In this document: positions 1 to 64,000 of the stretch, piece by piece
Numbering within the stretch: the stretch's first letter is position 1
Layout of the letters: each line of letters begins with the position of its first letter
From: a virus
Lineage: Duplodnaviria; Heunggongvirae; Uroviricota; Caudoviricetes
DNA length: 64,000 nucleotides
Reading direction: 5' to 3' (one strand)
Virus record (IMG/VR): IMGVR_UViG_2861079508_000001
Notes under the pieces: generated by a model
The model's database searches: none
Told to the model about the DNA's origin: nothing
The model's input: the letters and a program-made list of their open reading frames with translations, nothing else
Translations under genes and position numbers: made by a program

Positions 1-1095
1 ATGTCCACAAAAAATAAAAAAGGTAAAAATAACAAAGAAGTAGAAGATAACATCGACAACTTTGAAGAAGGTTCCCTTGAATTGTACACAGGGGAACTTG
101 TCCCTAATAGCAACAATACAGTCCAACCAATTGCGTTGATGCGACTGGGGTTGTTCGTCCCCACGCTTAAGGGAACAAAATACAGTAAACGTAACAAGCC
201 AAATGAGATCGATGCTTCAAAGGAGCTTGTCCAGCTCGAAGTAGCCCGTTCTGAAGGCTATTCCGATATCAAGATAACCGGTCCTCGTCTCGACATGGAT
301 CATGATTTCAAAACGTGGGTGGGCGTTGTGCGTTCGCTGGCAGAATACGGCGAACCTAACGGTCGTGTCGAGTTAAGCATCACGAAATTTGCGAAGTTTT
401 GTGGCTATCCATCGTCACAGATCCGCAAAACACTCCGCGACCGGCTTACAAACAGTCTTTTGAAGATCATGCGTACAACTCTGTCTTTCCAGAGAACGTA
501 TGAAGAAAAGAACGTCGACGGCTCTAACAAGATCTCGCTTCTGATGGTGCACCTCATCAATAGCGTGGACTACAACGAGCAGAAAGATACGGTGGTGTTC
601 TATGCAGAACCGAAGCTGGCCGAACTATATCGCTTTGACCATAAGGTTCTTTTGCAGTTAAAGGTTATCAATAAGCTACCACGCAAAGAAACAGCACAGG
701 CTCTGTACACCTTCATCGAAAGTCTTCCAACCAAGCCTGCGCCGGTATCGCTTGCTCGATTGCGTGCGCGACTCAATTTGAGTAGCAGGAATGTCAGCTC
801 GCAGAATCAGACTATACGTAACGGCTTAAAAGCTCTCCAAGATTTGGGCTATCTCGAATACAGCGAGATTAAGCGTGGGCGGTCGATCTATATCCAGATT
901 CACAGCCGCAATCCAAAACTCAAAGTCGCACCGCCAAAACCTGAAGACATCGAACCCAAAAAACCAGATGAGAAAGCCGGGGAAATTGATGCCAAACAGA
1001 ACATTATCAATAAGATAACCGAACTTTCGCAGAATTTGACGCCTGAAAATATCAAGATGATTGAGATCCTTTCCAATAGTCTCAAACTGCTTTGA
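1..1095 (+). CDS. repA: RepA-type iteron-binding plasmid replication initiator (P1/P7 RepA-like)
   Basis: 364-aa ORF starting at window base 1; segments SNNTVQPIALMRLGLFVP, DIKITGPRLDMD, ALYTFIESLP and HSRNPKLK match P1 RepA as I recall it; followed directly by iterons. Confidence 0.85.
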   Translation: MSTKNKKGKNNKEVEDNIDNFEEGSLELYTGELVPNSNNTVQPIALMRLGLFVPTLKGTKYSKRNKPNEIDASKELVQLEVARSEGYSDIKITGPRLDMDHDFKTWVGVVRSLAEYGEPNGRVELSITKFAKFCGYPSSQIRKTLRDRLTNSLLKIMRTTLSFQRTYEEKNVDGSNKISLLMVHLINSVDYNEQKDTVVFYAEPKLAELYRFDHKVLLQLKVINKLPRKETAQALYTFIESLPTKPAPVSLARLRARLNLSSRNVSSQNQTIRNGLKALQDLGYLEYSEIKRGRSIYIQIHSRNPKLKVAPPKPEDIEPKKPDEKAGEIDAKQNIINKITELSQNLTPENIKMIEILSNSLKLL

Positions 1096-1096
1096 T

Positions 1097-1212
1097 ATGC
1101 TGTCAGCGGTGAAATGTATGCTATCAGCGGCTATTTTTCTGAAAAGTATGCTGTGAACGGTTAAAGATATGCTACCAGCGGTATAGTGAGATGAACGTAT
1201 GCTGTGAGCGGT
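1097..1212. repeat. iteron array 1: five direct ~14-bp repeats ATGCT(G/A)(T/C)(C/G)A(G/A)CGGT, starts 1097/1118/1148/1169/1199
   Basis: read directly; same orientation; alternating 21/30-bp spacing; begins 2 bp after repA stop. Confidence 0.85.
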
Positions 1213-1374
1213 AAATCATCTATCACCACTCAATGCTCTGCCATACCTCCCCAGTGGTTACTAACCTCGAAGAGTGCATTCCATATAGGTTTGCGCTCAC
1301 TAACATTCTATTGCTATTGCGCTGATTGCTTGTAGTGAAAGGCATTTATTGCCTGCTACTCCCTGATAGAATGT

Positions 1375-1627
1375 ATGCTGTCAGCGGTGTTTTATTGAGG
1401 AATTTTTGTTTGGATATGCTATCAGCGGTAATTAATGGTATATGTCAGACCTTCGTATGCTGCCAGCGGTAATTTTGTTCTGGTTATACCCATACCGGGA
1501 CACATTATTCATGCAATGTCTTAAGTATGCTGTCAGCGGTAAAAAATCGAGTAAAGTATGCTGTGAGCGGTGAGATAGACTCTCGATATGCTATCAGCGG
1601 TAGTTGATTGTGTATGCTGTCAGCGGT
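1375..1627. repeat. iteron array 2: seven more copies of the same iteron (starts 1375,1416,1457,1527,1558,1588,1614)
   Basis: read directly; incA-like copy-control locus by analogy with P1. Confidence 0.8.
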
Positions 1628-1642
1628 GACGACTATGAAATA

Positions 1643-1666
1643 TGACTGCGGAACGTGCCGCAGTCA
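1643..1666. terminator. hairpin TGACTGCGG-aacgtg-CCGCAGTCA after the iterons; possible terminator
   Basis: perfect 9-bp inverted repeat; weak T-tract. Confidence 0.35.
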
Positions 1667-1674
1667 GTTTGCAT

Positions 1675-2436: not shown

Positions 2437-2775
2437 TCACTCAAAAGTGCTGATACCCAAAATGCGCTCAAGATGGGCCGCGTCTTCATCGCTTACCAGC
2501 ATTGTGTCGTCTACGTACCAGCAGCTACCGTTGTGCCAACAAACACCGTCATCATCGATATAAATAGAATCCGCATCCATTCCTGTGTATTCAACTAGAT
2601 TGCGTTCAATTGCCGCTTGAATTTCTTCATCGTTCAGCCCGTCGCACTTGATCATGAACAACGGGTAAACGTCATAGTCGGTACTAGATGAAATGCGAAC
2701 CAAAGTCTTCATGTGTTTTCTCCTTGTTGGTAAGTACTTATCTATCTTAATGGGCGCTATAAGGCGCACAATCAT
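2437..2775 (-). CDS. hypothetical protein; real start probably ATG at 2712 (MKTLVRISS...)
   Basis: GGAG ribosome-binding site a few bases upstream of the ATG at 2712; track start is a longer alternative. Confidence 0.4.
   Translation of the reverse strand: MIVRLIAPIKIDKYLPTRRKHMKTLVRISSSTDYDVYPLFMIKCDGLNDEEIQAAIERNLVEYTGMDADSIYIDDDGVCWHNGSCWYVDDTMLVSDEDAAHLERILGISTFE
2729..2746. promoter_or_regulatory. motif B (inverted ATAAGT/ACTTAT hexamers) upstream of 2437..2712 gene
   Basis: GGTAAGTACTTATCTATC read directly. Confidence 0.4.
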
Positions 2776-2891
2776 TGTGTTCAGGCTGGTGGAAAGAACT
2801 TCTCCAGCGTGTGGTTGATAGCCTTATCAATGTGCATCAGGTGCCAGACGACCATATCTTTGCTTCCAATGCCGCGAGTGTAGATGAAGTG

Positions 2892-6610
<3,719 letters not shown>

Positions 6611-6624
6611 AATTGTAAGTTCCC

Positions 6625-7788
6625 TTAATCAAAATTCTTCTGTTTCATTGCCTCAGCCGCTTTTTGCAGCGGTCCTTTTAAGGCTTTTTCTAACTTTGTC
6701 ATCTGCTCTAAGTGCCACGCAACCGCTTGGGGCCAAGTCTCTTTGTTAAACCCGTCAGCTTTGGTCGAAAACTGGATACGGCAAGATTTCTTCTCATCCA
6801 GCCTCATCCACTCAAGTTCTGCACCAAAAGTATGCTCAATGTCTTGTTTGGACTGACTCAACAAATCAAAAAGGTATTTATTCTCTTCGGTAACCCCACG
6901 GCTGATCCAAAGCTCTACTCGAAGCTCTTTTTGCAGAAATATCAGGTTATACGGACATCCACTTAGCCCTGAGCCTGCTGATAACCAATGATCTTTGCTT
7001 GGGCTAATGTTGTTATAGAGTTGGCAAGAGCTTTTCTGAAACGCCTCTAAGGCACGCTCCCAGTACTCGCGACGCACGGTATGGCGGTTTTTTAGTACCA
7101 CTTCGGTGGTTTTTTCTTCCGCTTCCTTGGCATTAATGCCGATCATCAACTCTTTCGCTTCTGGCGTTGGAATGATCTGGTCAATATTAATCAGTAGCTG
7201 TTCACCCAGTGAATAAGGCGTGATTTTGAAGCAGGCAATGCTAATGCCTTGACCCAATAACCACAGCGCGGTGCTGGTCACTTCTTTGCGAAAGTTTGCC
7301 GCAACTAACATAATGCGCTGGCTGTTACCCAGGTTGAGCTTTAACTCATCGAGATCGGGCGCATCCAAAAACTCACATATTCTAGCAGAGGCACTTGCAG
7401 GGGTATTAAACAAGTCAACCTCTCCTGTTACAGGCTCATAGCGGTCTAAGTACTGCTGGTAAATTTCAACGATTTGCGCTTTGGTTAAACTTGCGCAGTA
7501 GGAGGCATATTTAAGCGCCTGCCACACCACATCGCGGCCACTGTCGTCCAGCTTGTTTTCAATAATGACCAAGTTGCCATCTTTATCCAGTGCCAGTAAA
7601 TCTAAGCGTTCACGGGTGTCATCAAAGCCATCGAACTCTTTTTGAATAATCAGCAGCTCTTCACCCAGTGCGGAAGGCTCGTGTGCCAACCATTCCTGAA
7701 GATTTTTGCGCTCAGTAAAGCCCAACTCACTGAATCTCTTCGTCTTAACCGGACTAATCCTGTTGGTCTGATGATTTACCGTGAACAT
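6625..7788 (-). CDS. PD-(D/E)xK nuclease-like protein embedded in the type I R-M operon (DUF4268-like)
   Basis: 387 aa; N-terminal LDLLALDKDGNLVIIENK fits a D...ExK nuclease motif; 9-14 bp gaps to hsdS and hsdR; family assignment from memory. Confidence 0.5.
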   Translation of the reverse strand: MFTVNHQTNRISPVKTKRFSELGFTERKNLQEWLAHEPSALGEELLIIQKEFDGFDDTRERLDLLALDKDGNLVIIENKLDDSGRDVVWQALKYASYCASLTKAQIVEIYQQYLDRYEPVTGEVDLFNTPASASARICEFLDAPDLDELKLNLGNSQRIMLVAANFRKEVTSTALWLLGQGISIACFKITPYSLGEQLLINIDQIIPTPEAKELMIGINAKEAEEKTTEVVLKNRHTVRREYWERALEAFQKSSCQLYNNISPSKDHWLSAGSGLSGCPYNLIFLQKELRVELWISRGVTEENKYLFDLLSQSKQDIEHTFGAELEWMRLDEKKSCRIQFSTKADGFNKETWPQAVAWHLEQMTKLEKALKGPLQKAAEAMKQKNFD

Positions 7789-7797
7789 ATTCGCTTC

Positions 7798-9126
7798 CTA
7801 TTGCTCAACCATTTCTGGGGTGATCTTGATTTTTCCTGTCACGGCGCTGTTGATCAGGGTGGTTTTATATTCTTTAAGCTTTTCGATTTGTATTTTTTGA
7901 TACTCTATAGCTCGCTCAACATCACCATTTAATCTGTTAATGTACGTAATAATTCCATCTCGTTCATTTTTAGAAGGGGGGAAAGGCACAAAAATGCTAT
8001 TAAGATTCCCCACTGTAAGCTGATTAATTGTTGATGTAAGAAATGTCCCTGATAACATTTTGAAAACATCACTATTTAGAATGCAAAATAAATACTCATT
8101 GTGTTTAGATCTGAATACCGTAGTAAAGGCCCCGAAGCTGTTTCCCTCATCAGCGTCAGATACAAATGCACACTTGCCAATTAGGTCTCGACTTCCATTC
8201 CTGGAGCATATCAAAATATCACCTTTTTTAAGCTTTAAGTGCTCAGGAATAAAGCAATTGACATAAACATTTTCCTTTTCACCATACTTAAACTTCCCTT
8301 CGTATAAGTTTGATGATCGCGCAACTAGAGTTCCGCCTTTTTCATCACTTAAATCATTTGGCGAATAAGTTAACCCAATGATCGATTTACCAAGATATTT
8401 TAACCTCTTAACGTCCCAATGCGCTGGAATCTTACCAATCCAATCCACACCGGAGTCTTTCATTGGCACATTGGGATCAAGCCCTTGGGTCACCGCCTGT
8501 TGGATGATGATCTGCTTACGCTCTTTCAGCAGGCTAATTTGCTGCTCTTTGATCGAAATCGCTTCGTCGATTAGAGCGGTTTTCTTGTCGAGGAAGCAGG
8601 CAATTAGAAGTTGTTCCTCGGTTGGTGGCAAAAATACCAAGGCTCGTTTTAATTGAGGCCAATATAGGTTTCTCTGAATTGTTCCTACACCTTTTGAGCT
8701 AACTAAGTAATTAGCCACCATTGCCCCATCTCTGAACAGATAGTTACCAAAGCGGGGAACTATATCTTCCGATAAAGAAAGAACTAAGTAAGCTGGGCTG
8801 ACTATTCCTCGGTAATCAGAAACACCGACTGAACCACGCCAAGCTTGCTGATTATTTAAAACAAAGTCACCTGGATCTACCAACTGATACTTAGTCAGAT
8901 CCGAACTGGTTGTATTTGTACGTTTTGCATCAACGTCATCGAATTTTATTACTCCTTTGTCCAAATAGACTGATAGAAGCTCTTCATTTTCATTATTAGA
9001 AATAGATTTTAATTTTGATTTTGCGCACAAAGGAAATGAATTCCAGTGAACTGGTATGGCCCCTATCCATTCAACACCTGAATCTTTATAAGCCTCATAT
9101 TTCGGCATTTCAGAAATCTTCATCAT
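7798..9126 (-). CDS. hsdS: type I restriction-modification specificity subunit (HsdS), two target-recognition domains
   Basis: 442 aa; duplicated (V/I)(E/D)WIG.IP.HW signatures at N-terminus and mid-protein; between hsdM and hsdR. Confidence 0.85.
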   Translation of the reverse strand: MMKISEMPKYEAYKDSGVEWIGAIPVHWNSFPLCAKSKLKSISNNENEELLSVYLDKGVIKFDDVDAKRTNTTSSDLTKYQLVDPGDFVLNNQQAWRGSVGVSDYRGIVSPAYLVLSLSEDIVPRFGNYLFRDGAMVANYLVSSKGVGTIQRNLYWPQLKRALVFLPPTEEQLLIACFLDKKTALIDEAISIKEQQISLLKERKQIIIQQAVTQGLDPNVPMKDSGVDWIGKIPAHWDVKRLKYLGKSIIGLTYSPNDLSDEKGGTLVARSSNLYEGKFKYGEKENVYVNCFIPEHLKLKKGDILICSRNGSRDLIGKCAFVSDADEGNSFGAFTTVFRSKHNEYLFCILNSDVFKMLSGTFLTSTINQLTVGNLNSIFVPFPPSKNERDGIITYINRLNGDVERAIEYQKIQIEKLKEYKTTLINSAVTGKIKITPEMVEQ

Positions 9127-9132
9127 AACGAC

Positions 9133-11592
9133 TTACCCCTGAACCTTTTTTACTTCCGCACCAAGAATCTGCGCAATCAAACCTTCGGCTTTTTGTTCTA
9201 GGTTGATGATGTCGGTTGCGACCTCTTCTAAACTACGCAGCGGTTTATGACGGTAGAAATACTTATTGAAGCTGATTTCATAGCCAATTTTTACCGTATC
9301 TAGGTTTATCCATGCTTCATCGACATGAGGCTTCACTTCATCTAGGAAGTACTGGTAAATGCTTTGCTTTAATGGAACAGATTCTGTATCTCGCAGGTCT
9401 GAATTGGTCTCGTAAGTGATATACTCGCCTTTTTTACCGCCTTCTGCTGAAGGAACGGGGTAATAACCAAAATCTGGCAAGTCAGCGACTTCACACTCAT
9501 AGCGCTCCAGCAGGTCGTTTAATTTATCACCCGTTAATTTAACTACCTTTTTAACCACTTTCTTGGCGGTTTCGTCATACCAGCTCACCGCGTGAAGAAT
9601 GGCATTTTTCTCAGGTGCTGAAAGCTTAATAGCATGGGCTTTTAGCGATTTATCAACTTGGGTTTTAAAGCTATTGAAGTCATCAAATTCAATGCTACCG
9701 ATGTCAGCCATCAGCGTTTGTGCAGTTTCAAGCAATGCTTTTAGCGCCAGCCAGTGTTTCACATCAAGCAGTTTGGCCTTAGCCTTAGCATTGAGACTGA
9801 TGTCGTTATCTTCACACCAAGAAAGAATGTCTTTCTCGATGGATTTTAAGAAGCTCTTTTTCTGATCTGACCCGTAGCCAGTTTTTTCGTAAACACGTTC
9901 GCCGTGCTCTGCGTACACGTACTCCATCACTTCACTAAGTTGCTTATCAAAACGCAGTGGGGCTATGGCATCTTGAGTAAACTTGGCTTTGCGGCGATCT
10001 GGGCGCTCGATAGTGACTTTGTAGTAGCCAAAATCGTCATTGCTGAATACCTTACTGGCGATGCCAACAGGATCATTGTTTGCATCCAGTGCTCTTTCAA
10101 CATCCTTACACGCGAGGTAAGTATCGGTAATTTCCGTGATGTGCTCAGGCGCAAATTCGCAGTTTTTGTTACCTAAGTTCTTGCGCAACTTACGGTAGAG
10201 CAAGCTGGCATCAATTAATTGCACCTTACCTTTACGCGCCTCAGGTTTATTGTTGTTCAACACCCAAATGTAAGTGGTAATGCCAGTGTTATAGAACAGG
10301 TTATTAGGTAACTGAACGATGGCATCTAGCATGTCGTTTTCAATGATGAAGCGACGAATATTACTTTCGCCACCGCCCGCATCACCGGTAAAGAGCGATG
10401 AGCCGTTATGAACAGAGGCAATCCGGCTGCCTAATGGACTTACGCTCGGATCTTTCATCTTGTTGACCATCTCCATTAAGAAAAGCAGCTGGCCATCACT
10501 CGAACGTGGCGTGGCATCCACCACTTCGAGATTTCCCCAATAGTCTTTCAGGCTAACCTTAAAACGCGGGTCAATCACATCGCTGCCGTCTTTAATGTAC
10601 TTCTGTTCAGACGCCCAACTCTTACCGTATGGCGGGTTAGACAACATAAAGTCAAAGCGAGAAGCCGCAAACTCGTCGGTAGACAAGGTTGAGCCTACCT
10701 TGATGTTCTCAGGGTTGTTACCTTTGATCATCATGTCCGATTTACAAATCGCGTAGGTCTCGTCATTGATCTCTTTGCCGTAAAGGTAAATATCTCGGCT
10801 GTCGTTCGGGTATTTCTCTTCAATGAAGTTTTGAGATTCAGTGAGCATACCACCGCTACCACACGCAGGGTCGTAAACGGTCATGGTCAATGGTAGCTGC
10901 TCTTTCACTGGGTCAAAAACCAAGTGTGTCATCAGCTCAATCACTTCCCTAGGTGTAAAGTGCTCACCGGCTTCTTCGTTATTCTCCTCGTTGAACTTAC
11001 GGATCAACTCTTCGAACACGTACCCCATACCCAGGTTAGTAAGGGCTGGCATCTTGTTGCCATCTGGGTCTTCGATCGTTTCATGAGTTAAGTTGATGTA
11101 AGGGGAAACAAACTTTTCGACGACATCAAGAAGGACTTGCTTTGAGGCCATGTGACGAATTTGCGACTTGAGGTTAAAGCATTCAATGATTTCTTTAACA
11201 TTATCGCTAAAGCCAAGCAGGTACTCTTCAAAGTTGGCGAGTAATATCTGTTGGTTATTCGTTGCGGTGTTGAACAGGGATTTCAGGGTCCATTTAGATG
11301 TATTGTAAAAAACATAACCACTAGCCGCCTTCAATGGTTCATCATCAAGCTCCGTGGCTTGCATCTCTTCTTTTTGGAACTTGACCTCTTCAAGCACGGC
11401 TTCTTTGGTGGGTTCAAGTAACGTATCTAAACGTCGTAATACCACCATAGGTAAAATCACATCGCGGTACTTACCGCGAACGTACACATCACGTAAACAG
11501 TCGTCGGCAATGTTCCATATAAATGAGATGAGCTTGTTATGTACACTATGATCCATTTTCTTTTCCTGTTCAGTGTTGGTTGCACCCCACAA
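9133..11592 (-). CDS. hsdM: type I R-M N6-adenine DNA methyltransferase (HsdM) with long C-terminal extension; start probably MDHSV (about 11556)
   Basis: AdoMet motif DPACGSGGML and catalytic NPPYG; N-terminal IWNIADDCLR HsdM-N signature; about 800 aa versus roughly 520 typical. Confidence 0.85.
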   Translation of the reverse strand: MWGATNTEQEKKMDHSVHNKLISFIWNIADDCLRDVYVRGKYRDVILPMVVLRRLDTLLEPTKEAVLEEVKFQKEEMQATELDDEPLKAASGYVFYNTSKWTLKSLFNTATNNQQILLANFEEYLLGFSDNVKEIIECFNLKSQIRHMASKQVLLDVVEKFVSPYINLTHETIEDPDGNKMPALTNLGMGYVFEELIRKFNEENNEEAGEHFTPREVIELMTHLVFDPVKEQLPLTMTVYDPACGSGGMLTESQNFIEEKYPNDSRDIYLYGKEINDETYAICKSDMMIKGNNPENIKVGSTLSTDEFAASRFDFMLSNPPYGKSWASEQKYIKDGSDVIDPRFKVSLKDYWGNLEVVDATPRSSDGQLLFLMEMVNKMKDPSVSPLGSRIASVHNGSSLFTGDAGGGESNIRRFIIENDMLDAIVQLPNNLFYNTGITTYIWVLNNNKPEARKGKVQLIDASLLYRKLRKNLGNKNCEFAPEHITEITDTYLACKDVERALDANNDPVGIASKVFSNDDFGYYKVTIERPDRRKAKFTQDAIAPLRFDKQLSEVMEYVYAEHGERVYEKTGYGSDQKKSFLKSIEKDILSWCEDNDISLNAKAKAKLLDVKHWLALKALLETAQTLMADIGSIEFDDFNSFKTQVDKSLKAHAIKLSAPEKNAILHAVSWYDETAKKVVKKVVKLTGDKLNDLLERYECEVADLPDFGYYPVPSAEGGKKGEYITYETNSDLRDTESVPLKQSIYQYFLDEVKPHVDEAWINLDTVKIGYEISFNKYFYRHKPLRSLEEVATDIINLEQKAEGLIAQILGAEVKKVQG

Positions 11593-11764
11593 AGTTGCTG
11601 CAACGGCTTCACTATAAATTTAAAATTCTGTTCTTTCTGTAACGCCTAAATGGCCGCTACATCGTTCGATTAACTTGTTCTACCCGGCGCTAGATTTAAG
11701 TTTATGACACCATAAAGTGAATCGCCACAGGTTTAACAGACACCTCAGAGTCATTTAAGATGAC

Positions 11765-11956
11765 TTAAAGAGAGGTGTACAGCTCGGTATTCAGACCAGT
11801 CCACTGACGGCCAACGCCGACAACTTCACCGATACCTTTGTCTTCACCCAATTTGTTTACTTTGATGCCAACGTACCCAGGCTCAACACGATCGCAGCCT
11901 GTAAGACCCATTGTGCAAACAGCAGCCACGATCACTGCCAGTAAACCTTTCTTCAT
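11765..11956 (-). CDS. small lipoprotein (63 aa)
   Basis: N-terminus MKKGLLAVIVAAVCTMGLTGC has a lipobox. Confidence 0.5.
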   Translation of the reverse strand: MKKGLLAVIVAAVCTMGLTGCDRVEPGYVGIKVNKLGEDKGIGEVVGVGRQWTGLNTELYTSL

Positions 11957-13324: not shown

Positions 13325-13326
13325 GA

Positions 13327-13599
13327 TCAGGCTCCTTTTGTTTCGTTGATTCGTTTTAAAGCGGCGGATTCGTCGAATACAATCGCATCGTGGTTAAGGA
13401 GTCTGGATACACGAGCGAGGATTTTTACGACCTGCTCGCTGACTAATCCAAACTCGCGATCTGTCGCTTTCATTCCGGCAGCGCCTAGAATTGACGGCAG
13501 TGCGATGACAGCGTACTCACCGTGATAAAAGACAATCTCTTTTGCCAGTTGGGCAGGGGTGGTTGTAGCGCCATTGATAATCGATTTAAGCATTAGCAA
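13327..13599 (-). CDS. hypothetical protein (90 aa)
   Basis: ORF between exonuclease and recombinase genes. Confidence 0.35.
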   Translation of the reverse strand: MLMLKSIINGATTTPAQLAKEIVFYHGEYAVIALPSILGAAGMKATDREFGLVSEQVVKILARVSRLLNHDAIVFDESAALKRINETKGA

Positions 13600-14588: not shown

Positions 14589-14597
14589 GTAATGGGA

Positions 14598-43025: not shown

Positions 43026-43026
43026 A

Positions 43027-44140: not shown

Positions 44141-44371
44141 TTCAGCATTGCAACGGACTGATGAGAAAGCACCTACTCCTACCCATCGCCAGTTATAGAT
44201 ACTACCCGCTTTGTATAAGGTATAGTCGTTCACTTTTTTAACAGCATATATGGGTATGACTGTCTCCTGTCCACCAATGATAGCCTCACCGTAACATATA
44301 GGTGTCGGCAATTTCTGGCAGCCAGTAAGAGAGAGAACAACAGCTATTATTAGAAATAATCTTTTCATCAT
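44138..44371 (-). CDS. small lipoprotein (77 aa), possible superinfection-exclusion factor
   Basis: MMKRLFLIIAVVLSLTGC has a lipobox; sits between lysis genes and tail-fiber genes. Confidence 0.5.
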   Translation of the reverse strand: MMKRLFLIIAVVLSLTGCQKLPTPICYGEAIIGGQETVIPIYAVKKVNDYTLYKAGSIYNWRWVGVGAFSSVRCNAE

Positions 44372-45241: not shown

Positions 45242-45266
45242 AAATATATCCTTATACTTTTAAGCA

Positions 45267-45289
45267 GGGGCTGGTTTAGTTCCAGCCCC
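45267..45289. terminator. hairpin GGGGCTGG-tttagtt-CCAGCCCC downstream of tail fiber gene
   Basis: 8-bp GC stem; no clear T-tract. Confidence 0.35.
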
Positions 45290-45301
45290 GATTGAAGTTG
45301 T

Positions 45302-54281: not shown

Positions 54282-54872
54282 TTACATAAGCTGGTCGATG
54301 GTGATAGAAGAACTCACGACCTGTGAGCCAACTAAAATTTCCTCGCCATAGATAAGCTGTACAGGGTTCCCCTGGTTTGTTGTGTTTTGAGGTCCATCAA
54401 AGTAATAAGAGTTCGAGTTATCCGCCTGCCTCACACTTTCGTTAGTGGCTTGCGGAGATATGATTTGCGCTATACCGCCCATCATCAGTGACAAACCGAG
54501 AGGCGCAAGAGCGGGCACCCATATCGAGGCAACCATTAATACTGCTCCAACAACCGTCTGAAACCATCCAAAAGCAGATCCACCACTTCCTCGCGGAACA
54601 GGGGTAATGCGGATTTTTGCAATATTGTCAGACTGCCCCATCATCTGATATTCACTCTCGTCCACAGACCACTTGTGGCCCTGTTTATTGGTGATCTGGA
54701 TGTGGTATCTGTCATAGGTTTTGATATTGCGCTTCATCCATGCTTTAAACCCAGGCTTGTTGGCCTCAATTAAATCCAGAGCCTGTTTTGTATTACGCAC
54801 CTTTAGATGCCAGTGGCGGCCAAAATGTTTGGCCATAGGGCCGCCAAGCTGCACATGAACTAACTCAGACAC
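54282..54872 (-). CDS. lambda I-like tail assembly protein
   Basis: 196 aa; position between K-like and J-like genes; C-terminal hydrophobic segment. Confidence 0.75.
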   Translation of the reverse strand: MSELVHVQLGGPMAKHFGRHWHLKVRNTKQALDLIEANKPGFKAWMKRNIKTYDRYHIQITNKQGHKWSVDESEYQMMGQSDNIAKIRITPVPRGSGGSAFGWFQTVVGAVLMVASIWVPALAPLGLSLMMGGIAQIISPQATNESVRQADNSNSYYFDGPQNTTNQGNPVQLIYGEEILVGSQVVSSSITIDQLM

Positions 54873-55684
54873 GTCTCATCTCCCTTGAGCAAGTCTCTGT
54901 GACGCAAGTGATGCGTCGTATGTTTCTGATACATTCCGCCGTAATAAGCACGACAACTTAGGCGGTCGATCTGGTGATGAAGAATCATTCCATCGCCGAT
55001 ATAAACCGCGCAGTGGTCAGGCATTTTCCCGTATTGGATAAAGAATACGTCCCCACGTTGAGGCTCTGTTCCGGGCGCAAGACGCACCAATCCCTCGTTA
55101 CGGTAGTTCTGATCGAGAATGTCGTTATCGCCGGTGTACCACGATGGAATATGCAGGTGTGCGTTCGGGTTTAGTTCGACGTTAAACTCACGCTTCAAAT
55201 AGTCCCGACACAACATCCAGCAATCAAATACGCCAAATACATACGGTCTGCCCAGGTATGGCATTTCGAAACCATCAGGTGTGATCACATTCATCTCGCT
55301 AAAATGGAAAGGGGCATCTCCCTCAACATTCTTGCGAATAGCCAGAATCATCCACGGAACTTCCGTCGCTTCGCAGCCTGCACGATCGGCATCAGATGCT
55401 TCTGCTGATTCATCAGTATGTGAATGCCAGATTGCGATAACATCACCCGCATCCTCTGCCGCCATAATGTCGTCAACGTGCATTACAAAAGTGTTCTGCG
55501 GGTTCTCCGAAACATTCCGCGCTTCCATAAAGCGATATTTGTCGCCATTAGTTCTAACCAGAAAGCCACACGCTTCATTAGGGTAGCGATTTATGGCGCA
55601 GAGATAGATTTGCTGCATAACGTCAGAGCCAAGCTCAGGGATTGCTTTATTACCCATACCGCGTAGCTCCAATAAATCCGCCAA
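54860..55684 (-). CDS. lambda K-like tail assembly protein (JAMM/MPN plus NlpC/P60)
   Basis: JAMM-like WHSHTDESAEASDAD and Cys/His C-terminal domain. Confidence 0.8.
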   Translation of the reverse strand: MADLLELRGMGNKAIPELGSDVMQQIYLCAINRYPNEACGFLVRTNGDKYRFMEARNVSENPQNTFVMHVDDIMAAEDAGDVIAIWHSHTDESAEASDADRAGCEATEVPWMILAIRKNVEGDAPFHFSEMNVITPDGFEMPYLGRPYVFGVFDCWMLCRDYLKREFNVELNPNAHLHIPSWYTGDNDILDQNYRNEGLVRLAPGTEPQRGDVFFIQYGKMPDHCAVYIGDGMILHHQIDRLSCRAYYGGMYQKHTTHHLRHRDLLKGDETCLS

Positions 55685-56381
55685 AATGGATCACACCGTC
55701 GGCAAAATAATTCCGACGCGCATTACAGGCGTCATAACGTTTTGTGCAGTAATCCGCACCAGACATAGACGTCTGCTGGTTATTTTTGTCGAAATATGGA
55801 CCGGTATAGCCGCATTCTGGCCCTCGGTATTTCCACGGGCAGGTGTTTTTAATGATCTGACGATACGGCAGTTGCACCCCCATCAAATCGAACACACTGG
55901 ACAATTCAAACTCGACAACCTGATGAGTTTCGAGAGTTTTCTGTTCGATAAACCACATTTCATCCGGGAAATGTTGGTTTGGATCTGCTGTTGGGTTGCC
56001 GTCTTTAAAATTAACGGCATCGAGGAAGCGAGCCAGCGTCATCTTGCGAATAATGCGGCAGCCAACAAGATCGTCGTTCGCCTGAACTTCCGCAGAGACG
56101 GTTCCGGCAAAGTTCGATACCTGAATTTTTGGACGTGGCAACGTTCCCTGGCCCGTTTTGTCAAAGCCTGATGCTTTTATTGGCCACGGCTCGTATGTCA
56201 CTCCTTGCCAGACGACCGGTTGCATCAGTTCGTTTGTTCCGGCGTGGAAGAATAGCTTCCCCCCTGAAGTTGTGTTCGACATATCCAGTACGAACAACTC
56301 AATGAGTGCAGAGGGAGATAAGCTCTGAATATCAGCTTTAATTCCCATTGTTTCATCCTTGAAATAAGTAGGCGCTAACAT
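55650..56381 (-). CDS. lambda L-like minor tail protein (real start probably ATG at 56348)
   Basis: KNTCPWKYRGPECGY matches the lambda L motif; AAGGA ribosome-binding site before 56348. Confidence 0.8.
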   Translation of the reverse strand: MLAPTYFKDETMGIKADIQSLSPSALIELFVLDMSNTTSGGKLFFHAGTNELMQPVVWQGVTYEPWPIKASGFDKTGQGTLPRPKIQVSNFAGTVSAEVQANDDLVGCRIIRKMTLARFLDAVNFKDGNPTADPNQHFPDEMWFIEQKTLETHQVVEFELSSVFDLMGVQLPYRQIIKNTCPWKYRGPECGYTGPYFDKNNQQTSMSGADYCTKRYDACNARRNYFADGVIHFGGFIGATRYG

Positions 56382-56430: not shown

Positions 56431-56766
56431 TTAAGCCTCAAATACTTGTCTGAATGTAGCAGTTAAGACACAGTACCCCTGATATCGCTTGACCGTATGA
56501 CTGTCACATACAACTACAATCTGCTTGCCTCTTGGATTAACCCAATAGAACGATTCAACGCCTGATCGCTCAGTCAGGAAGTCATCGATTGCATTAATTT
56601 CGTTGTATGATCTGGTAAAGGTTAACGACCATTCTTCTTTAATACGATTAAGACCTTGAGCCTGTCGCTGCTCGTAGTCATCACCAAAATTAAGTACCGT
56701 TACATTCGGTTTTACGCTTTTTTCAGATTCGTAATCTGGATACCAATTAAACGTTTGTCTTTCCAT
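56431..56766 (-). CDS. lambda M-like minor tail protein
   Basis: 111 aa; LNFGDDYEQRQAQGLN resembles lambda M; position. Confidence 0.75.
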   Translation of the reverse strand: MERQTFNWYPDYESEKSVKPNVTVLNFGDDYEQRQAQGLNRIKEEWSLTFTRSYNEINAIDDFLTERSGVESFYWVNPRGKQIVVVCDSHTVKRYQGYCVLTATFRQVFEA

Positions 56767-56808: not shown

Positions 56809-59800
56809 TTAGTTACGTTGAGTGTTTGGGTTGAGAGATCCGCCAGGGCGTTTCTCTTGAGCGATAGTCTCAAGCGCGATTGCTTTCATCCGTTGAGCGG
56901 CATTGTTCCATATGCTTTCTGTATCGCCGGATTCAGTTGTGCTACCGTCACTATGGACGTTGATCTCAATTGATACCGGAGAAAGAACATTTCCTCCTCC
57001 ACTCATACCATCGGTACTGAGCGTTACAGGGATTGTTCGACCATCAGGCAATGGAACATACGCCTCATTCATATCGCCTTCCCCAAACAACGCCAATTGA
57101 GGTGAGTTGGCGATACCGCCTTTCTGGTATGCCCGGAGCGGGATCACGCCGTCTTTTCCGAATATGCCACCATTTGCAAACTTCGGAATTGCAGGAATAC
57201 CATTCGTGCCATCGGCAGCAGAACTGGTCAGATTGTTGAACCCGGAAGTTGAGCCAGAAGAACCGGACATCAATCCATCGAATCCACCACCAGCCCATAC
57301 TGAAACCAAACCAGATGCAACTGTCGCGCCGAAATTCAACCACTTATTACCAGAGCCGGAAGCATTAGCTCCAAGCATTGCAAACGCGGCAGACAGAGCG
57401 CCGGTAACAGAGCTGAGGTTCTGCATCGAGAAGATGGAGTCCTTCACTGCTTTTGTCTCAGCATCTTTGGCTTCGGTGCTATCAAATAGCCCCGATACCC
57501 AGCTACCAATCGCATTTGTTGCTGTGCCAATTGCGCTGGTGGTCTGCTGTGTTGTTTGCCCCAATCCAGTTACCGAACTGGACGTCTCCTTCGTGGCTTC
57601 TCCTACCGACTTGTCGCCATTAACAGTGTTGCCCATTCGTACACCTTGATTGGCAACGGCAGAAGCAACTCCAGTGAGCAAATTGCCACTCTGTGAACTA
57701 CCAGCTGCGGTGGTTCCCATCCCCAACATGTTCATTAGAGGCAGCGTGATTTGCGACTTCACGACCATATTGGTGATATCTTTCAAAATGGACTGAGATA
57801 GGCTGGAGAAGCTCATCTTCCCGTTAATAACGAAATCAGTCAGGACATCAGTTAAGCCACTAAACAAATCAGTCCAGGTGCTTTCGATCTGCTCTGCCAA
57901 GTTTTCGTATTCCAGTGCCAACTTCTGCGTCGCAGTCCCCGTCTCTTTAATAAGCGCGGTATTGCCAGCAGCAATCAGTTGATTGATTTTCTTTGTATAA
58001 AGCGCCACAACTTTAGGATCAGACGCCTTATCACGAAGTTCTATCAACGCTTTGAGATTGCGGTTGTAGGTGTCTTCGAAATCGGCAACTTTCTCTTCGC
58101 GAGACGGCGTATAGCCAGCACTAATAATGGAATCCGCCTCCGGTGCCCAAGTGGAGATCATCTGCTCAACATTGCGGCGATTAAACATCTCACGATATTC
58201 AGGTGTCGCATTTTTGAGGTCTTCAAGACGTTTTTTCGCCTTGTCGATCATCTCTTGAGTGATGAACTCGTTAGGAACCGCATTAGCCAAATCTGTCAGC
58301 GATTTCGTTGTATCGCGAAGAGACTGATCAAACGATACCGTAGCCTTAGAGCTTTCACCCATTTGCCCCATAAGCTGATCGGCTTTGTCCAGAGCCTTCT
58401 GGTATCCGGCTGCCAGTTTCTGTTGCGCTGCCTGTTCCTTCTTGGCCGCACGCTGCGAGGCGTTAGCTGATCGTTGGGCTGCTTTCTCGGCAGCTGCTGC
58501 ATCCTGTTCACGAGCTTTAGTTAGTGCAGCAATGGCTGCGGCACGCTCTTCATCGCTCATTTTCTCCAGAGAGCTGGCGCTGGATGCTTTCTGCAAATTA
58601 AGCTGCGTCTTGAGTTGTTTAGGCCCAATAATCGGCTTACCTTCGAAGTCCATCATCGGAGTGCCGTCAGGCAAAGTACGCTGATAAGTCGCAGAATTCA
58701 TCTGGTTTCGCATATATTGCGCCAACGCCTTCTGAGCAGCTTTATCAGTTGTACCTAACCCAAGAACAGTCCCCTGGTTTGACATTACGCCCTTACCAGT
58801 TTTGGCCGCGTTATCTCTCTCGAACTCTGCCTGAGTAAGTTCCTGAGCAACGGCTTCCAAATGCTCCTGATAACCACGAATACTGCCTTGCAGTTTCTGG
58901 ATTTGCTCGGTATTGCCATCCTTTTTGGCTTTTTCAAGCTGATCATTAAGAGTCGCGATTTGCTTCTCGGTCGCATTCTTACGAGAAGAAAGTGAATCAA
59001 CCAGTTTTTGCGCAGGCTCCAGATAGCTTTTGTTTACCGTTTCACGTAACGGTGCCAATAGCTTGTTCTTTTCGTCATCTGAAAGTGAACCGTCATCATT
59101 GATTTTCTGGATCTTATCCAGAGCCTCCTGCCGGGCTTTCACGAATGTTGCCGCGAAAATCTGGTTTTCCGCTCGAATTTTCTCAATCTGAGATTCGGCA
59201 GCCTCTTTAGCCAAACGCTTTGCTACAGCGCCGTCACCAAGAGCTATCGTGCCGGTTATCTTTTGATACTCTTCCTGATTTTTTTTCAGGCGTGCTTCGA
59301 TGTCAGCCTTCGACTCTTTGTGAGTAATAACACCGGCAGAGTTAGATACGTAATTAACACCCTCACCAGTTTTTAATGCTCGTTGATCAGCAAGAATCTG
59401 CTTTTCGAGCTTTTCTGCGCGGTCGGCCATTTGTGCACGTTTGGCCGCCGTCATCGCCTCTGGTATTTTCCTAATCTCGTCAACGACCTTTGAAGTTTCG
59501 CTGCGGAGCATGGTCATGTACGTGATTAGGCCAGCAACAGCTACAGTGGCAACTGTAAATGCTGCCCCTATAGGGTTTGCTGCAATGAACGCCGTTAATC
59601 CAGCAAAAGCGCCTTTAAGCCCCGTAATCGCCCCACGGATGGCGAAAATAAGAGAGGGGATCGGAGCCAGCCCCATACGTGCCGCACGATTGAATCGGGT
59701 TACTGCTGTAGCGCCGAGGTTAAATGGAGTCTGTATGGCGGTCGCCATCGTGGCAAAGGTGCTAACCATCTGGCTGCCTGCGCCAACTACCCCCATGATC

Positions 59801-60547
59801 CCTGCTCGCATCAGTTTGAACGCAACCATCGCGGCCACGACCTTACCGAGATTAATTACCAGCTCTTGGTTCTTTGCTAACCATTGAGCAAGCTGACGCA
59901 ACCCATCAATTGCCGTCGTTAACCCCGAGCCTAAAGAATTGGCAAACGAAATCCCTTCGGCGCTATTCATGATTGAAGCCAGTTCTTTCATCCCCTTCGA
60001 TAGAGAATCCAGATATCCGGCCTGACCAACCCGATCAGCAAATAACGTGAATGACGTCTGAAGTTGCGCCAGCGCACCTGTGTAGGTTTGCATCATGTCT
60101 TTCGCTGCGTTCTCATTCTCCGCACGCAGACCAACAAACATCAGAGACAACGCCTGTTTTGCCTCAACCGTACCGCTGGCAACGGCTTTAGTCAGTTCCC
60201 CCATAGTGATGCCTGCGGCGTCTGCCATTGCCTGCATCGCGTTAGGAACGGCTTCACCTAATTGCTGACGTAGCTCTTCCATTGACACAACGCCCTTACC
60301 GGACATCTGCTGAACGGCCACAGCCGCACGTTTCAACAGCTCACTATCACCACCAAAACGAGCAACGGAGTCCACCAGCGCCTTCAGAGAACCATCGGTT
60401 GGATCTAAGCCAGCAGAACGAAACTTCACGAAGGAATCTGTTAACGCCTGCATCGCGAACGGCGCATTTTGCGCCATGTCTACGATGTACTTCATATCAT
60501 CAGCGGCAGCCTGGCCAGGGTTGGACTTCTCCTTATTCAACCCTCGA
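56809..60547 (-). pseudogene. tail tape-measure protein, C-terminal ~1245 codons, separated from its 5' part by IS629
   Basis: long helical Ala/Gln-rich ORF upstream of M; reading frame stays open up to the IS boundary at 60547. Confidence 0.8.
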
Positions 60548-60601
60548 TGAACCGCCCCGGGAATCCTGGAGACTAAACTCCCTGAGAAAGAGGTAAACAG
60601 G

Positions 60602-60928
60602 ATGACTAAAAATACTCGTTTTTCCCCCGAAGTCCGTCAGAGGGCGATTCGTATGGTTCTGGAAAGTCAGGGCGAATATGACTCACAGTGGGCGGCAATT
60701 TGTTCCATTGCCCCAAAGATTGGCTGTACACCGGAGACTCTGCGTGTCTGGGTACGCCAGCATGAGCGGGATACCGGAGGCGGTGATGGCGGGCTCACCA
60801 CCGCTGAACGTCAGCGTCTGAAAGAGCTGGAACGTGAAAATCGTGAACTGCGCCGCAGTAACGATATCCTTCGCCAGGCTTCCGCTTATTTTGCGAAGGC
60901 GGAGTTCGACCGCCTCTGGAAAAAATGA
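60602..60928 (+). CDS. IS629 OrfA
   Basis: 108 aa [23 protein letters not shown]...; A6 run at 60920-60925 at orfA/orfB overlap. Confidence 0.9.
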
Positions 60929-61815
60929 TGCCACTGCTGGATAAGCTGCGTGAGCAGTACGGGGTCGGACCGCTATGCAGCGAACTGCATATTGCCCCGT
61001 CAACGTATTACCACTGTCAGCAACAGCGACATCATCCGGATAAACGCAGTGCCCGTGCGCAGCGCGATGACTGGCTGAAGAAAGAGATACAGCGCGTATA
61101 CGATGAAAATCATCAGGTGTACGGTGTGCGTAAAGTCTGGCGTCAGTTGTTACGGGAAGGTATCAGAGTGGCCAGATGCACTGTGGCACGTCTCATGGCG
61201 GTTATGGGACTTGCCGGTGTTCTCCGGGGTAAAAAGGTCCGTACGACCATCAGCCGGAAAGCCGTTGCCGCAGGCGACCGCGTAAACCGTCAGTTCGTGG
61301 CAGAACGACCTGACCAGCTGTGGGTGGCTGATTTTACTTACGTCAGCACATGGCGGGGCTTCGTCTATGTGGCGTTCATCATTGATGTGTTTGCCGGATA
61401 CATCGTGGGGTGGCGGGTCTCATCGTCTATGGAAACGACATTCGTGCTGGATGCTCTGGAGCAGGCGTTATGGGCCCGTCAACCGTCCGGCACAGTCCAT
61501 CACAGTGATAAAGGTTCTCAGTATGTATCGCTGGCCTACACACAGCGGCTTAAGGAAGCCGGATTACTGGCATCAACAGGAAGTACTGGTGACTCGTATG
61601 ACAACGCGATGGCGGAGAGCATCAATGGCCTTTACAAAGCGGAGGTAATACACCGTAAGAGCTGGAAAAACCGGACAGAAGTGGAGCTGGCCACACTCAC
61701 GTGGGTGGACTGGTATAACAATCGACGATTGCTGGAAAGGCTGGGCCATATCCCACCGGCAGAAGCAGAAAAAGCTTATTATGCTTCCATCGGAAACGAT
61801 GATCTGGCAGCCTGA
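60925..61815 (+). CDS. IS629 OrfB (DDE transposase), -1 frame relative to OrfA
   Basis: 296 aa with rve core (WVADFTYV...HHSDKGSQY...YDNAMAES). Confidence 0.9.
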
Positions 61816-61857
61816 GTTCACAGATAAAACACTCTCCAGGAAACCCGGGGCGGTTCA

Positions 61858-62714
61858 CGAAGCATCACCCGCATACGTTCCATTTCGGCCGCAGCTTCAA
61901 CAATAGGCTTCTGCCACCCAAACATGATGTCAGTAACCGTTCTGGCTGCATCTCCGATCTCGCCAAGCAGGAAAATGTTGCCACGAAGGCCAGAGAACAT
62001 ACCTCCTTCGTTACTTTTACCGCTATGGCCAGAAGCGCCGCTACGCCGCCCGCTACCACCATCGCCACTTCCAGATGTACGAACGCGTACCGGCTTGCTA
62101 ATCAGTTGCTGACGTCCGATAACTTCGTCCATCTGCTCACGAACCTTTTTCAGTCCCTCGGCAGCCTGACTCGTTGTGACACCCCAATTACTGAGTCGCT
62201 TCGTCGTGGTATTAAGGCGCGTATTCATGCCACTCACGGACGCAGAGGCTTCTTTGACCTCCGTACCAAAGCGGCTTGCGCTTTTGCTTGCATAGGTCGC
62301 CCAATCAGAGAAATCATTTAGCTCTGATTGCACTTTACGTAATGACGCGGTGAGTTTATCTACTGAAGAAGTTGTCGTATCGACGCGCTCAATCAGGGCT
62401 TTAAGACCAGAATTGAGGCTGGTGATGTTGCCACGCATTTTACGCGTAGCATCTGAAGCAAGCTCAAAACCGGCAGCTACATCCTGTAGTTTATCTGCTG
62501 TAGAATCGAGCTTGCTTTCCAGAACGCCAATGATACGGGCGACCGAACCCAAAGAGCGTTCAAAGGTTTGGATTTTTTGAGCAGGCTTTGTTACCTGCTC
62601 ACCAAATCGAGTAAGCAGTTTCCCCGCACGATCGATTGACGCTGTAAACTGTTTGTCTTCCAGCGACAGGATAAACTCTACGTTTTGTGACATTCCCTTG
62701 TCATCCTCTGCCAA
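61858..62714 (-). pseudogene. tail tape-measure protein, N-terminal ~285 codons (track ORF continues into the IS to 61818)
   Basis: follows G/T chaperone genes; frame arithmetic shows continuity with 56809..60547 after removing IS plus one CGA. Confidence 0.8.
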
Positions 62715-62970
62715 ATATTTGCATCAGTTGCTCTTTGGCGTCAGGGTCTGCCTTATCCTGGCTTGGATCGTAGACTTTATCTGTTACGACTGGTCTTCCA
62801 ATCCTGAGTTGCAAACCCTCCATGAACGCCTTCACAGCCTCGCCATCCGCCTGGGACGCACGAGCGACTTGTAAGTTGCGGACATCCTCTTCCGCACGCA
62901 GACGGTCTATATTGCGACTGAGCATCCAGAACATCGTGAGAGGAACGTTCAGTAGCTCTAATGGCGACAC
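62701..62970 (-). CDS. tail assembly chaperone T-frame segment (GT-like, probably via -1 frameshift from G)
   Basis: in the -1 frame relative to G and overlapping the tape-measure start; lambda G/GT synteny. Confidence 0.45.
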   Translation of the reverse strand: MSPLELLNVPLTMFWMLSRNIDRLRAEEDVRNLQVARASQADGEAVKAFMEGLQLRIGRPVVTDKVYDPSQDKADPDAKEQLMQIFGRG

Positions 62971-63050
62971 GGCGTAGTGAGCAACTACACGACTGAAATA
63001 GAATCCGAGATCTATTGAGACGGTCCTTGTCCCGGATTCATCGCGGGAAA

Positions 63051-63368
63051 TTACTTTGCCCCTTCGCCAGCCGCTTTTTCGTTTTCTTCATCAATCACTT
63101 CCATAGCGAAGGTGAAGATCTGCTGGAGTTGCGGAACAGTCAGTTTTTCAAGAACTTCATCAGGCACTGAAGGGATAACCTTACGAACCAGATCTGCATA
63201 AGCTGTCACTTGCTCAACAGGAGACATGTTCATGAGATCTTTGCCTTCCATCTGCTTGATGGAAACGAACAAACCTACCGTCATTTCAACGATGGGATAT
63301 TCCTGACCGCCAAATTTGATGCTTTTCTTCGGAGGCAGAATGGAATCGAGATCGAGTAATTTGGTCAT
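63051..63368 (-). CDS. tail assembly chaperone (lambda G-like)
   Basis: 105 aa acidic protein between major tail gene and tape-measure gene. Confidence 0.6.
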   Translation of the reverse strand: MTKLLDLDSILPPKKSIKFGGQEYPIVEMTVGLFVSIKQMEGKDLMNMSPVEQVTAYADLVRKVIPSVPDEVLEKLTVPQLQQIFTFAMEVIDEENEKAAGEGAK

Positions 63369-63423
63369 TGGTTTAAATCCTTTTAAAAGAGAGGCTCATC
63401 CTGAGCCTCTGCTTAGTTACTGA

Positions 63424-64000
63424 TTAATCTGCGGAGTTAATCGTTACTGACTTAGTAGCCTTCTTAGAACCGCTATTGCTGGTGAAGGAGATGTTTGCAG
63501 TACCCTGCGCCACACCGCGCACAAGACCCGTTTGATCTACCGTGGCCTTTTCCTGGTCTTCGGATTCCCAAACACCGGTTTTGTCTGCGGCATCAGCTGG
63601 AGTGATTTCGGCTGTCAGTTGCACAGTTTCTCCAGCTTTTACGGTTGGAGATTCCGGTTTGATCGACACGGTTTTTACCGGTTTAGGGCCGCTCATTCTT
63701 CCCAGAACGCCTTCGTCATCAGGGTACGCACTGAACTGAACAGAGAACACACGAACATCATCAGACTGGTAAGTCATGGTGAAGTTACCTGCGGTCGCAG
63801 CTTTCGGGATGGTCAGAACGTAGTCGGTAGTGTCCTGCGGAGTCAGAACCAGCTCTTTGGCTACGTCGATCAGGTTGACACCCTGTGCGGAAGTGATGGT
63901 CACAGCGTTGTCGTCTTCGTTCAGAGTAGACCCCGGCATCAGATCGACCATATTTTTCAACACAGACTCGGCCAGCGGCGCAGTAATGGTAATGTTACGA
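63424..64000 (-). CDS. major tail protein (lambda V-like) with C-terminal Ig-like domain; 5' end beyond window
   Basis: frame stays open to base 64000; C-terminal VQLTAEITPADAADKTGVWESEDQEKATVDQTGLVRGVAQGTANISF is Ig-like. Confidence 0.7.
   Translation of the reverse strand, partial: RNITITAPLAESVLKNMVDLMPGSTLNEDDNAVTITSAQGVNLIDVAKELVLTPQDTTDYVLTIPKAATAGNFTMTYQSDDVRVFSVQFSAYPDDEGVLGRMSGPKPVKTVSIKPESPTVKAGETVQLTAEITPADAADKTGVWESEDQEKATVDQTGLVRGVAQGTANISFTSNSGSKKATKSVTINSAD

Follow-up and report, generated by a model that had tools for sequence, protein, structure and literature searches.

A probably tail-defective phage-plasmid of the SSU5_pHCM2 group from Escherichia coli, with a dnaE gene split by a homing endonuclease gene

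Organization of the window and its closest relatives

We analysed a stretch of 64,000 nucleotides (hereafter the window) from a tailed-virus record of IMG/VR (IMGVR_UViG_2861079508_000001), which carries part of a phage-plasmid related to Salmonella phage SSU5 and to the S. Typhi plasmid pHCM2. The window encloses about 65 genes, nearly all of them on the minus strand according to the map of open reading frames (ORFs), as the initial annotation had noted for the backbone, and four tRNA genes. A plasmid replicon and a partition pair are found together with replication, recombination, lysis and lambda-type tail genes, and accessory genes lie in slots between them. Two of the genes are interrupted: the tape-measure gene by an insertion sequence (IS) and dnaE by a homing endonuclease gene.

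The closest records are circular plasmids, and the closest relatives come almost all from E. coli or Shigella, the hosts that had been proposed at the outset. The E. coli plasmid pRHB17-C18_2 (CP057685.1; circular, 112,153 bp, from pig faeces in the UK) aligns with the window end to end, in reverse orientation and with 99.9% identity, the IS excepted. The differences between them amount to an insertion of 1,310 bp in the window, two small deletions, in frame or intergenic (24 bp at 11737; 12 bp at 53451, in frame within J), a 1-bp indel at each of two intergenic sites, and 20 substitutions. Position 1 of the window is also position 1 of related plasmid records (for example, NZ_CP113488.1 and the CMS-2020a records), and for this reason the window most likely represents the opening part of a plasmid record, rotated so as to begin with the start codon of repA.

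Every window ORF was compared by tblastn with the whole genomes of SSU5 and pHCM2. The window is collinear with SSU5 from 9.3 to 60.4 kb and with the corresponding region of pHCM2; 48 of its 64 ORFs have a collinear homologue in SSU5, with amino-acid identities of mostly 80–96% in the backbone and a nucleotide match of about 82%. The initial assignment to SSU5/pHCM2-type phage-plasmids is thereby supported. Missing from both SSU5 and pHCM2 are an IS911 remnant, the type I restriction–modification (RM) genes with their DUF4268 gene, the HNH gene inside dnaE, a cassette encoding proteins of 178 and 75 residues, a 302-residue orphan, a 137-residue lipoprotein-like gene, a Sel1-repeat gene, a GIY-YIG gene and the IS629-type element. 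A helix-turn-helix (HTH) regulator, a tyrosine recombinase and a glutaredoxin are found in pHCM2 and not in SSU5. A close relative that carries no RM island, NZ_CP113488.1, has a backbone about 97% identical to that of the window, and its comparison delimits the variable stretches at 2736–11776, 26412–27405, 27542–28621, 33739–35611, 39146–40080, 41212–42638 and 45257–47974. Judged by its sequence, the window is therefore a member of the SSU5_pHCM2 group, in the pECOH89/pRHB17-C18_2 lineage, and as such an already known kind of element: the SSU5 supergroup, including this group, has been described before (PMC7969092).

The lysis and tail genes and the insertion in the tape-measure gene

The lysis cassette, assigned with PHROGs and located on the minus strand, consists of the spanins (42626–43025), an endolysin (43027–43746) and a holin homologue (43733–44068), with a Cor-like exclusion gene next to it (44138–44371); this block (42626–44371) corresponds to SSU5_025–030. 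The tail genes that follow on the same strand encode a tail fibre of 1,385 residues (45302–49459), J, the tail tip (49552–54270), I (54282–54872), K (54860–55684), L (55650–56381) and M (56431–56766), as named from Pfam and from the PGAP names in CP057685.1. Beyond the two parts of the tape-measure gene lie the tail chaperones T (62701–62970) and G (63051–63368), recognized by identity to SSU5 and by frame analysis, and the major tail protein V (63424–64000; identity to SSU5), which runs off the window end. V, G and T are 94–98% identical to SSU5_012–014, and the T frame stays open, in the −1 register, across the last codons of G, as in the conserved tail-chaperone frameshift. All of the lysis and lambda-like tail genes initially listed, from V to J with the tape measure as H, could thus be identified. 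The capsid genes lie just outside the window span in CP057685.1.

The tape-measure gene is an intact ORF of 1,523 codons in both of the closest relatives, CP057685.1 and the pSJC33-type plasmid NZ_CP080257.1. Here, it is cut after about codon 278 by a 1,310-bp IS629-type element of the IS3 family on the plus strand (60548–61857), which encodes orfA (108 residues) and orfB (296 residues) and contains an ALIL frameshift pseudoknot. Alignment to the intact gene of CP057685.1 places the 5′ part, about 278 codons, at 61858–62693 (minus strand) and the 3′ part, which is severed from the start codon, at 56809–60547 (minus strand; Pfam TMP_3 and Tape_meas_lam_C). The ends of the element are TGAACCGCCCCGG, and they are flanked by a 3-bp target duplication, CGA, at 60545–60547 and 61858–60. 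Copies that are 100% identical are widespread in E. coli genomes, with a RefSeq label that reads just ‘IS3 family’. We take the element to be IS629, judging by its size and end sequences; related copies in relatives are labelled ‘IS1203 family’. The initial annotation had counted IS629 among the accessory genes. An IS3-family element is indeed present, but it is no mere cargo, as it splits a tail gene.

The two 99.9%-identical relatives are free of this IS, which dates the insertion as recent on the sequence comparison. Since tape-measure proteins are essential in other siphoviruses, the insertion probably abolishes tail assembly, so that this copy would form no infectious particles and would be locked in the plasmid mode. 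Further IS3-family insertions (and an IS100 insertion) are found in CP056801.1, NZ_CP025883.1 and NZ_CP117972.1, in V, in J and at another site of the tape-measure gene; these copies were found by a query with the tail region alone, and a preference for tail genes cannot be claimed from them. As they lie at different sites, a shared IS hot spot in the tape-measure gene was rejected, and the insertions in the relatives read as independent events: tail-gene decay through IS insertion is, by these alignments, recurrent in the lineage.

These data bear directly on whether the element could still be a fully functional temperate phage-plasmid, in which the IS is tolerated or is excised often enough, perhaps with the help of a host IS-excision enhancer (IEE). 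The remaining phage genes in the window are all intact ORFs; moreover, the target duplication is an exact 3 bp, so precise excision would restore the tape-measure gene, and IEE-enhanced excision of IS629 is documented in E. coli. On the other hand, the ORF is cut near codon 278 of 1,523 and the part downstream of the cut lacks its own start context, while the IS copies in other tail genes of the relatives suggest a tail module that decays time and again, and not one in which insertions are tolerated. We therefore consider a still infectious element improbable.

Replicon, partition and plasmid state

The window opens with repA (1–1095, plus strand; Pfam Rep3_N), which encodes an iteron-binding replication initiator of 364 residues counted from the ATG at position 1. 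Downstream of it, 12 iterons TATGCTRTCAGCGGT form an incA-like control locus (1096–1627, plus strand; 12 matches against 0.21 expected by chance). Four further iterons are present in CP057685.1, 21–121 bp upstream of the repA ATG and just beyond the start of the window, so that the iteron arrays flank repA on both sides. Because these four iterons sit directly before its ATG, the 364-residue reading is more likely to have the true RepA start. In CP057685.1, repA is annotated as a 404-residue ORF that overlaps the four iterons.

RepA of P1/P7 is 43.5% identical to the window RepA over 76% of the protein (tblastn, E = 2e-64), which upholds the P1-type replicon with iterons of the initial annotation. 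Among the relatives, RepA is about 48–49% identical to that of SSU5 and pHCM2, 85–87% to that of Klebsiella phage-plasmids and 100% to that of ‘Escherichia phage CMS-2020a’. Outside repA, SSU5 is the nearer relative of the backbone and the Klebsiella elements are more distant. Since RepA has its nearest relatives in Klebsiella phage-plasmids whereas the neighbouring backbone is nearer to SSU5, the comparison points to an exchange of the replicon within the SSU5 supergroup. This gives a concrete sense to the term ‘mosaic’ that had been applied to the element.

The partition pair lies on the minus strand. The first protein (40436–41104, 222 residues; Pfam) is a small Walker-type ParA that has no DNA-binding domain at its N terminus, and its best match among solved structures is ParF (PDB entry 4dzz, E = 3e-10). 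The second gene, directly downstream of parA (40077–40436), encodes a putative centromere-binding partner of 119 residues. The pair is kept in SSU5 and pHCM2, with 89–94% identity. The initial annotation had described a ParA/ParG-like pair. Its ParA half is borne out by the match to ParF; for the 119-residue partner, neither ParG nor any solved structure gave a sequence match, and sequence homology to ParG was rejected on this basis. A pattern judged by eye might suggest a ribbon-helix-helix fold for this protein.

No relative of the element is chromosomal. Using the backbone segment 12251–16199, chosen because it is free of mobile elements, we found it in 251 of 5,426 complete E. coli genomes (approximately 5%), at 257 places that are all on plasmids, with no chromosomal copy among them. 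Could this window nevertheless derive from an integrated prophage or chromosomal island? A tyrosine recombinase gene (25177–26280, minus strand; Pfam Phage_integrase) lies 2.5 kb from a cluster of four tRNA genes, tRNA-Ser(TGA), Thr(TGT), Tyr(GTA) and Asn(GTT) (28802–29455, minus strand; ARAGORN, three of them confirmed by Rfam), and could have acted as an integrase beside them. Yet both window ends run on into plasmid backbone in the alignment to CP057685.1; tRNA-derived direct repeats are absent from the borders of the recombinase region, and the finding of only short repeats at chance level led us to reject an integrative island of this type; and the same recombinase is present in pHCM2, a plasmid. 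Together with the plasmid location of all 257 occurrences, this makes an integrated state exceedingly improbable, and chromosomal integration with att sites, which had been named as the observation that would speak against a phage-plasmid, is already contradicted at the family level. The recombinase, absent from SSU5, probably resolves multimers. Adjoining it is the HTH regulator (24796–25182, plus strand; PHROG phrog_8), which is conserved in pHCM2 and NZ_CP113488.1 and absent from SSU5.

A DnaE polymerase in two pieces

Whereas SSU5 and pHCM2 have a single dnaE ORF of about 1,172 codons, the window has two ORFs on the minus strand around a free-standing gene for an HNH/NUMOD3 homing endonuclease (17467–18201, minus strand, 244 residues; Pfam). 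DnaE-N (18250–20613, 787 residues) holds the PHP, palm and fingers domains and DnaE-C (16301–17470, 389 residues) the HhH domain (Pfam). The end of DnaE-N and the start of DnaE-C adjoin on the SSU5 protein, with no residues lost or gained, and the sequence outside the ORFs amounts to a stop codon plus an AT-rich spacer of 48 nt. The stop codon of the endonuclease gene overlaps the start codon of DnaE-C (ATGA), with a Shine–Dalgarno sequence, GAGGTG, ahead of it. The break falls about 30 residues upstream of the FNKSHS motif at which cyanobacterial DnaE is divided by a split intein.

Two other ways of interrupting the gene were rejected. A group I or group II intron around the HNH gene was ruled out, as Rfam gave no match at the gathering score or even at E ≤ 1. 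An intein, or a ‘fractured gene’ of the intein type, was dismissed because the two halves run collinear with the unbroken DnaE of SSU5 and no Hint sequence is present.

Altogether 24 plasmid records, belonging to E. coli, Enterobacter and Cronobacter, show the split arrangement. Between split records, both dnaE halves show dN/dS (the ratio of nonsynonymous to synonymous substitution rates) of 0.02–0.05 at a synonymous divergence, dS, of 0.66–1.33, while the endonuclease gene shows a dS of 0.16–0.38 with dN/dS of about 0.19. As the dS of the endonuclease gene is far below that of the dnaE halves, and both halves are under purifying selection, the pattern fits a homing endonuclease that spread among dnaE alleles that had already diverged, with the halves still under selection. 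The two pieces could then assemble into a non-covalent heterodimeric replicative polymerase, created and spread by the HNH homing endonuclease across at least three genera, a proposal to which we give even odds. If true, this DnaE would be a natural, intein-free split of a C-family polymerase. We regard the split as the one modestly new detail of the element; its occurrence across genera provides a small lead for researchers working on homing endonucleases or polymerase architecture.

Speaking against a functional two-piece polymerase, none of the 12 related records in the phage collection has a split dnaE, and a plaque-forming phage with a split dnaE was thus not found among them.

Other replication and recombination genes

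The neighbouring genes, all on the minus strand, form the rest of a replication and recombination set. RecA (12251–13324), a 5′–3′ exonuclease (13593–14588) and a gp32-type single-stranded DNA-binding protein (14598–15626), all from Pfam, make up a block (12251–15626) with 83–96% amino-acid identity to SSU5 and pHCM2. On the other side of dnaE are a CobS-like AAA+ ATPase (20794–22029; Pfam AAA_5) and a CobT-like VWA protein (22125–24233; Pfam CobT and CobT_C). Glutaredoxin (27296–27541; Pfam Glutaredoxin), an ATP-dependent DNA ligase (31045–32367; Pfam DNA_ligase_A_M, 91% identical to SSU5), a Toprim primase (35587–36840; Pfam) and a DnaB-like helicase (36850–38190; Pfam) follow; the last two are 85–94% identical to SSU5. 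The gene set listed in the initial annotation is therefore present, tRNAs included, except that its ‘primase-helicase’ is in fact two separate genes. Its description of the replication genes as T4-like holds for gp32 and, weakly, for a UvsY-like protein; DnaE, RecA and the DnaB-like helicase are of bacterial types.

The recA gene of many relatives (e.g. NZ_CP080257.1, NZ_CP058309.1 and NZ_CP015915.1) contains a 1.3-kb LAGLIDADG/Hint (intein-like) insert, and the dnaE gene of some relatives a group II intron (ltrA); the recA gene of the window is uninterrupted. Given these insertions in relatives, the replication genes of the SSU5-type family are frequent targets of selfish elements.

Accessory cargo and defence-type genes

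The largest accessory block is a 9-kb island on the minus strand (2736–11776; Pfam and PADLOC), which is absent from SSU5, pHCM2 and NZ_CP113488.1. It contains the 3′ remnant of an IS911 (2884–3512; IS911 match), hsdR (3593–6610), a DUF4268 gene (6625–7788) between hsdS and hsdR, hsdS (7798–9126) and hsdM (9133–11592). The three hsd genes, each recognized by Pfam and PADLOC, form a complete type I RM gene set. The DUF4268 gene matches PDC-S11, a candidate defence family of PADLOC, at E = 1.8e-182, and its product lacks a homologue of known structure. Comparison with island-free relatives indicates that the island replaced about 1.2 kb of backbone, which held a small gene and an SPFH-domain gene; the latter is left with its first 61 codons (11765–11956, minus strand).

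A side observation concerns the edge of this island. For a stretch of 60 bp (11718–11777), the identity is 100% to the Shigella phages SfIV and VIT_AJPSC, and 97% to the phages ev099 and Kp4865-2. Within this stretch lie a hairpin (CACCTC...GAGGTG) and a 24-bp unit, which is single here and tandemly duplicated in CP057685.1.

The remaining slots hold smaller genes. A cassette of two overlapping genes on the plus strand (26531–27269), encoding 178 and 75 residues without any family match, is kept together in unrelated contexts in Dickeya and Yersinia chromosomes, and the 178-residue protein gives a weak signal for a GNAT-like fold. Adjoining the tRNA cluster is a 302-residue orphan with 29% GC (27715–28623, plus strand), a candidate HEPN-domain protein; its family comprises 8 clusters only, nearly all on E. 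coli contigs of phage-plasmid size, and has an invariant R-x4-H motif. This motif and the HEPN-like predicted fold make it a possible RNase-type defence gene. A hot spot at 33739–35611 is occupied by the 137-residue lipoprotein-like gene (33803–34216, minus strand) and by the Sel1-repeat protein (34405–35595, plus strand; Pfam Sel1), both absent from SSU5, pHCM2 and NZ_CP113488.1. Finally, the GIY-YIG nuclease gene (39257–40024, plus strand) matches PADLOC PD-T4-3 (E = 1.3e-23, residues 11–231) and, over its full length (residues 12–230), the structure of CMoRE (PDB entry 9U7U, E = 2e-15). The CMoRE family is a type IV nuclease family degrading hydroxymethyl- and glucosyl-hydroxymethyl-cytosine DNA (PMC12923530), and the gene is thus a candidate for type IV restriction of hydroxymethyl-cytosine DNA. 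RM systems and PD-T4-3 have already been reported in SSU5-supergroup members from E. coli and Shigella (bioRxiv 10.1101/2025.09.12.675607).

The strand had been proposed as a guide to the accessory set, with the plus-strand genes as its likely members. Plus-strand genes do fill hot spots as cargo, but RepA, also on the plus strand, is backbone, and the HTH regulator is kept in relatives. The rule also fails in the opposite direction, as it misses the RM island, the homing endonuclease gene and the lipoprotein-like gene, all on the minus strand.

Proposed state of the element

We propose that the window covers the initial 64 kb of an E. coli phage-plasmid, circular and about 113 kb in size, which belongs to the SSU5_pHCM2 group, and that this copy most likely persists as a plasmid only, with a defective tail; we put the probability of this reading at about 0.88. 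In the prophage state the element would be a low-copy plasmid. RepA would bind the iterons on both sides of its gene, in a layout of the P1/RepFIB type, and thereby set origin firing and copy number; the ParF-like ATPase and its small, putatively DNA-binding partner would segregate the copies, and the tyrosine recombinase would resolve multimers. The remaining backbone would constitute the siphovirus programme, with its own replication and recombination set, tRNAs, a holin–endolysin–spanin cassette and a lambda-type tail. Between the backbone blocks lie slots for exchangeable cargo, which in this copy would hold the type I RM system with DUF4268, the PD-T4-3/CMoRE-like nuclease, the HEPN-like orphan, the Cor-like exclusion gene and the 178/75-residue cassette, their defence functions being predicted from families and folds. 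With the recent IS629-type insertion in the tape measure, the element would persist as a plasmid and release no infectious particles.

Several points weigh against this proposal. Circularity, size and copy number of the source are deduced from its relatives, and the window does not reach the capsid and terminase genes. Virion formation by this exact lineage is putative; the relatives in the phage collection, CMS-2020a, PhiR41_1 and Cyrano, are 94–96% identical over only 53–60% of the first 25 kb. The loss of infectivity is argued by analogy with the tape-measure genes of other siphoviruses. Moreover, the split of dnaE could also impair lytic replication, as no record of the phage collection shares it.

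Another reading is a phage-derived plasmid instead of a phage-plasmid, with mere remnants of phage genes and no past as an active phage. The broken tape-measure gene and the split dnaE of this copy would suit such a history, as would the fact that, for most relatives, there are plasmid records and nothing else. But SSU5, which was isolated as a phage, has the same gene order; the backbone genes are intact and highly conserved (dN/dS of 0.02–0.08 for dnaE); and the absence of the IS from the 99.9%-identical relatives makes the defect a recent one. We consider a never-phage origin very improbable, and favour a phage-plasmid that has probably lost its tail, and only lately.

The analysis provides a clean annotation of a common E. 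coli element that carries defence genes and sometimes resistance genes. The features that go beyond the initial annotation are the type I RM island, the endonuclease gene in dnaE, the tyrosine recombinase and the interruption of the tape-measure gene by the IS. To an element of an otherwise known kind, the useful additions are a probably tail-defective copy, a type I RM system on the backbone strand as the main cargo and a DnaE split by a homing endonuclease gene. This copy would represent a snapshot of the passage from phage to plain plasmid by a single IS insertion, and its cargo slots show how anti-phage genes collect.

Comparison with known systems

The plasmids pRHB17-C18_2 and NZ_CP080257.1 share with the window 99.9% nucleotide identity, the RM island, the split dnaE and the cargo genes, and differ from it in having no IS629-type element in the tape-measure gene; NZ_CP080257.1 differs further by the LAGLIDADG element inside its recA. 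SSU5 and pHCM2 have their genes in the same order between the tail region and repA, but their RepA is another allele (approximately 49% identical), their dnaE is intact, the type I RM island is missing and the slots hold different genes. SSU5 also has one tRNA instead of four and has no block of HTH regulator, recombinase and glutaredoxin.

The replicon resembles that of phage P1 (repA with the incC and incA iterons) and RepFIB, with a homologous RepA and iterons on both sides of the gene. The iteron sequence differs from that of P1. P1 also differs in its ParA/ParB partition system, compared with a ParF-type small ParA here, and the remaining genome is unrelated.

For the split dnaE, the closest parallels are the genes of T4-related phages that are divided by free-standing homing endonuclease genes, such as nrdA of phage Aeh1, split by mobE (PMC3045599, PMC2988022). 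Here as there, an essential replication gene is present as two ORFs around an endonuclease gene; intron and intein are lacking, and the halves are conserved. The difference is that the host gene here encodes the C-family polymerase DnaE, in a phage-plasmid, and that the assembly of its two halves is putative.

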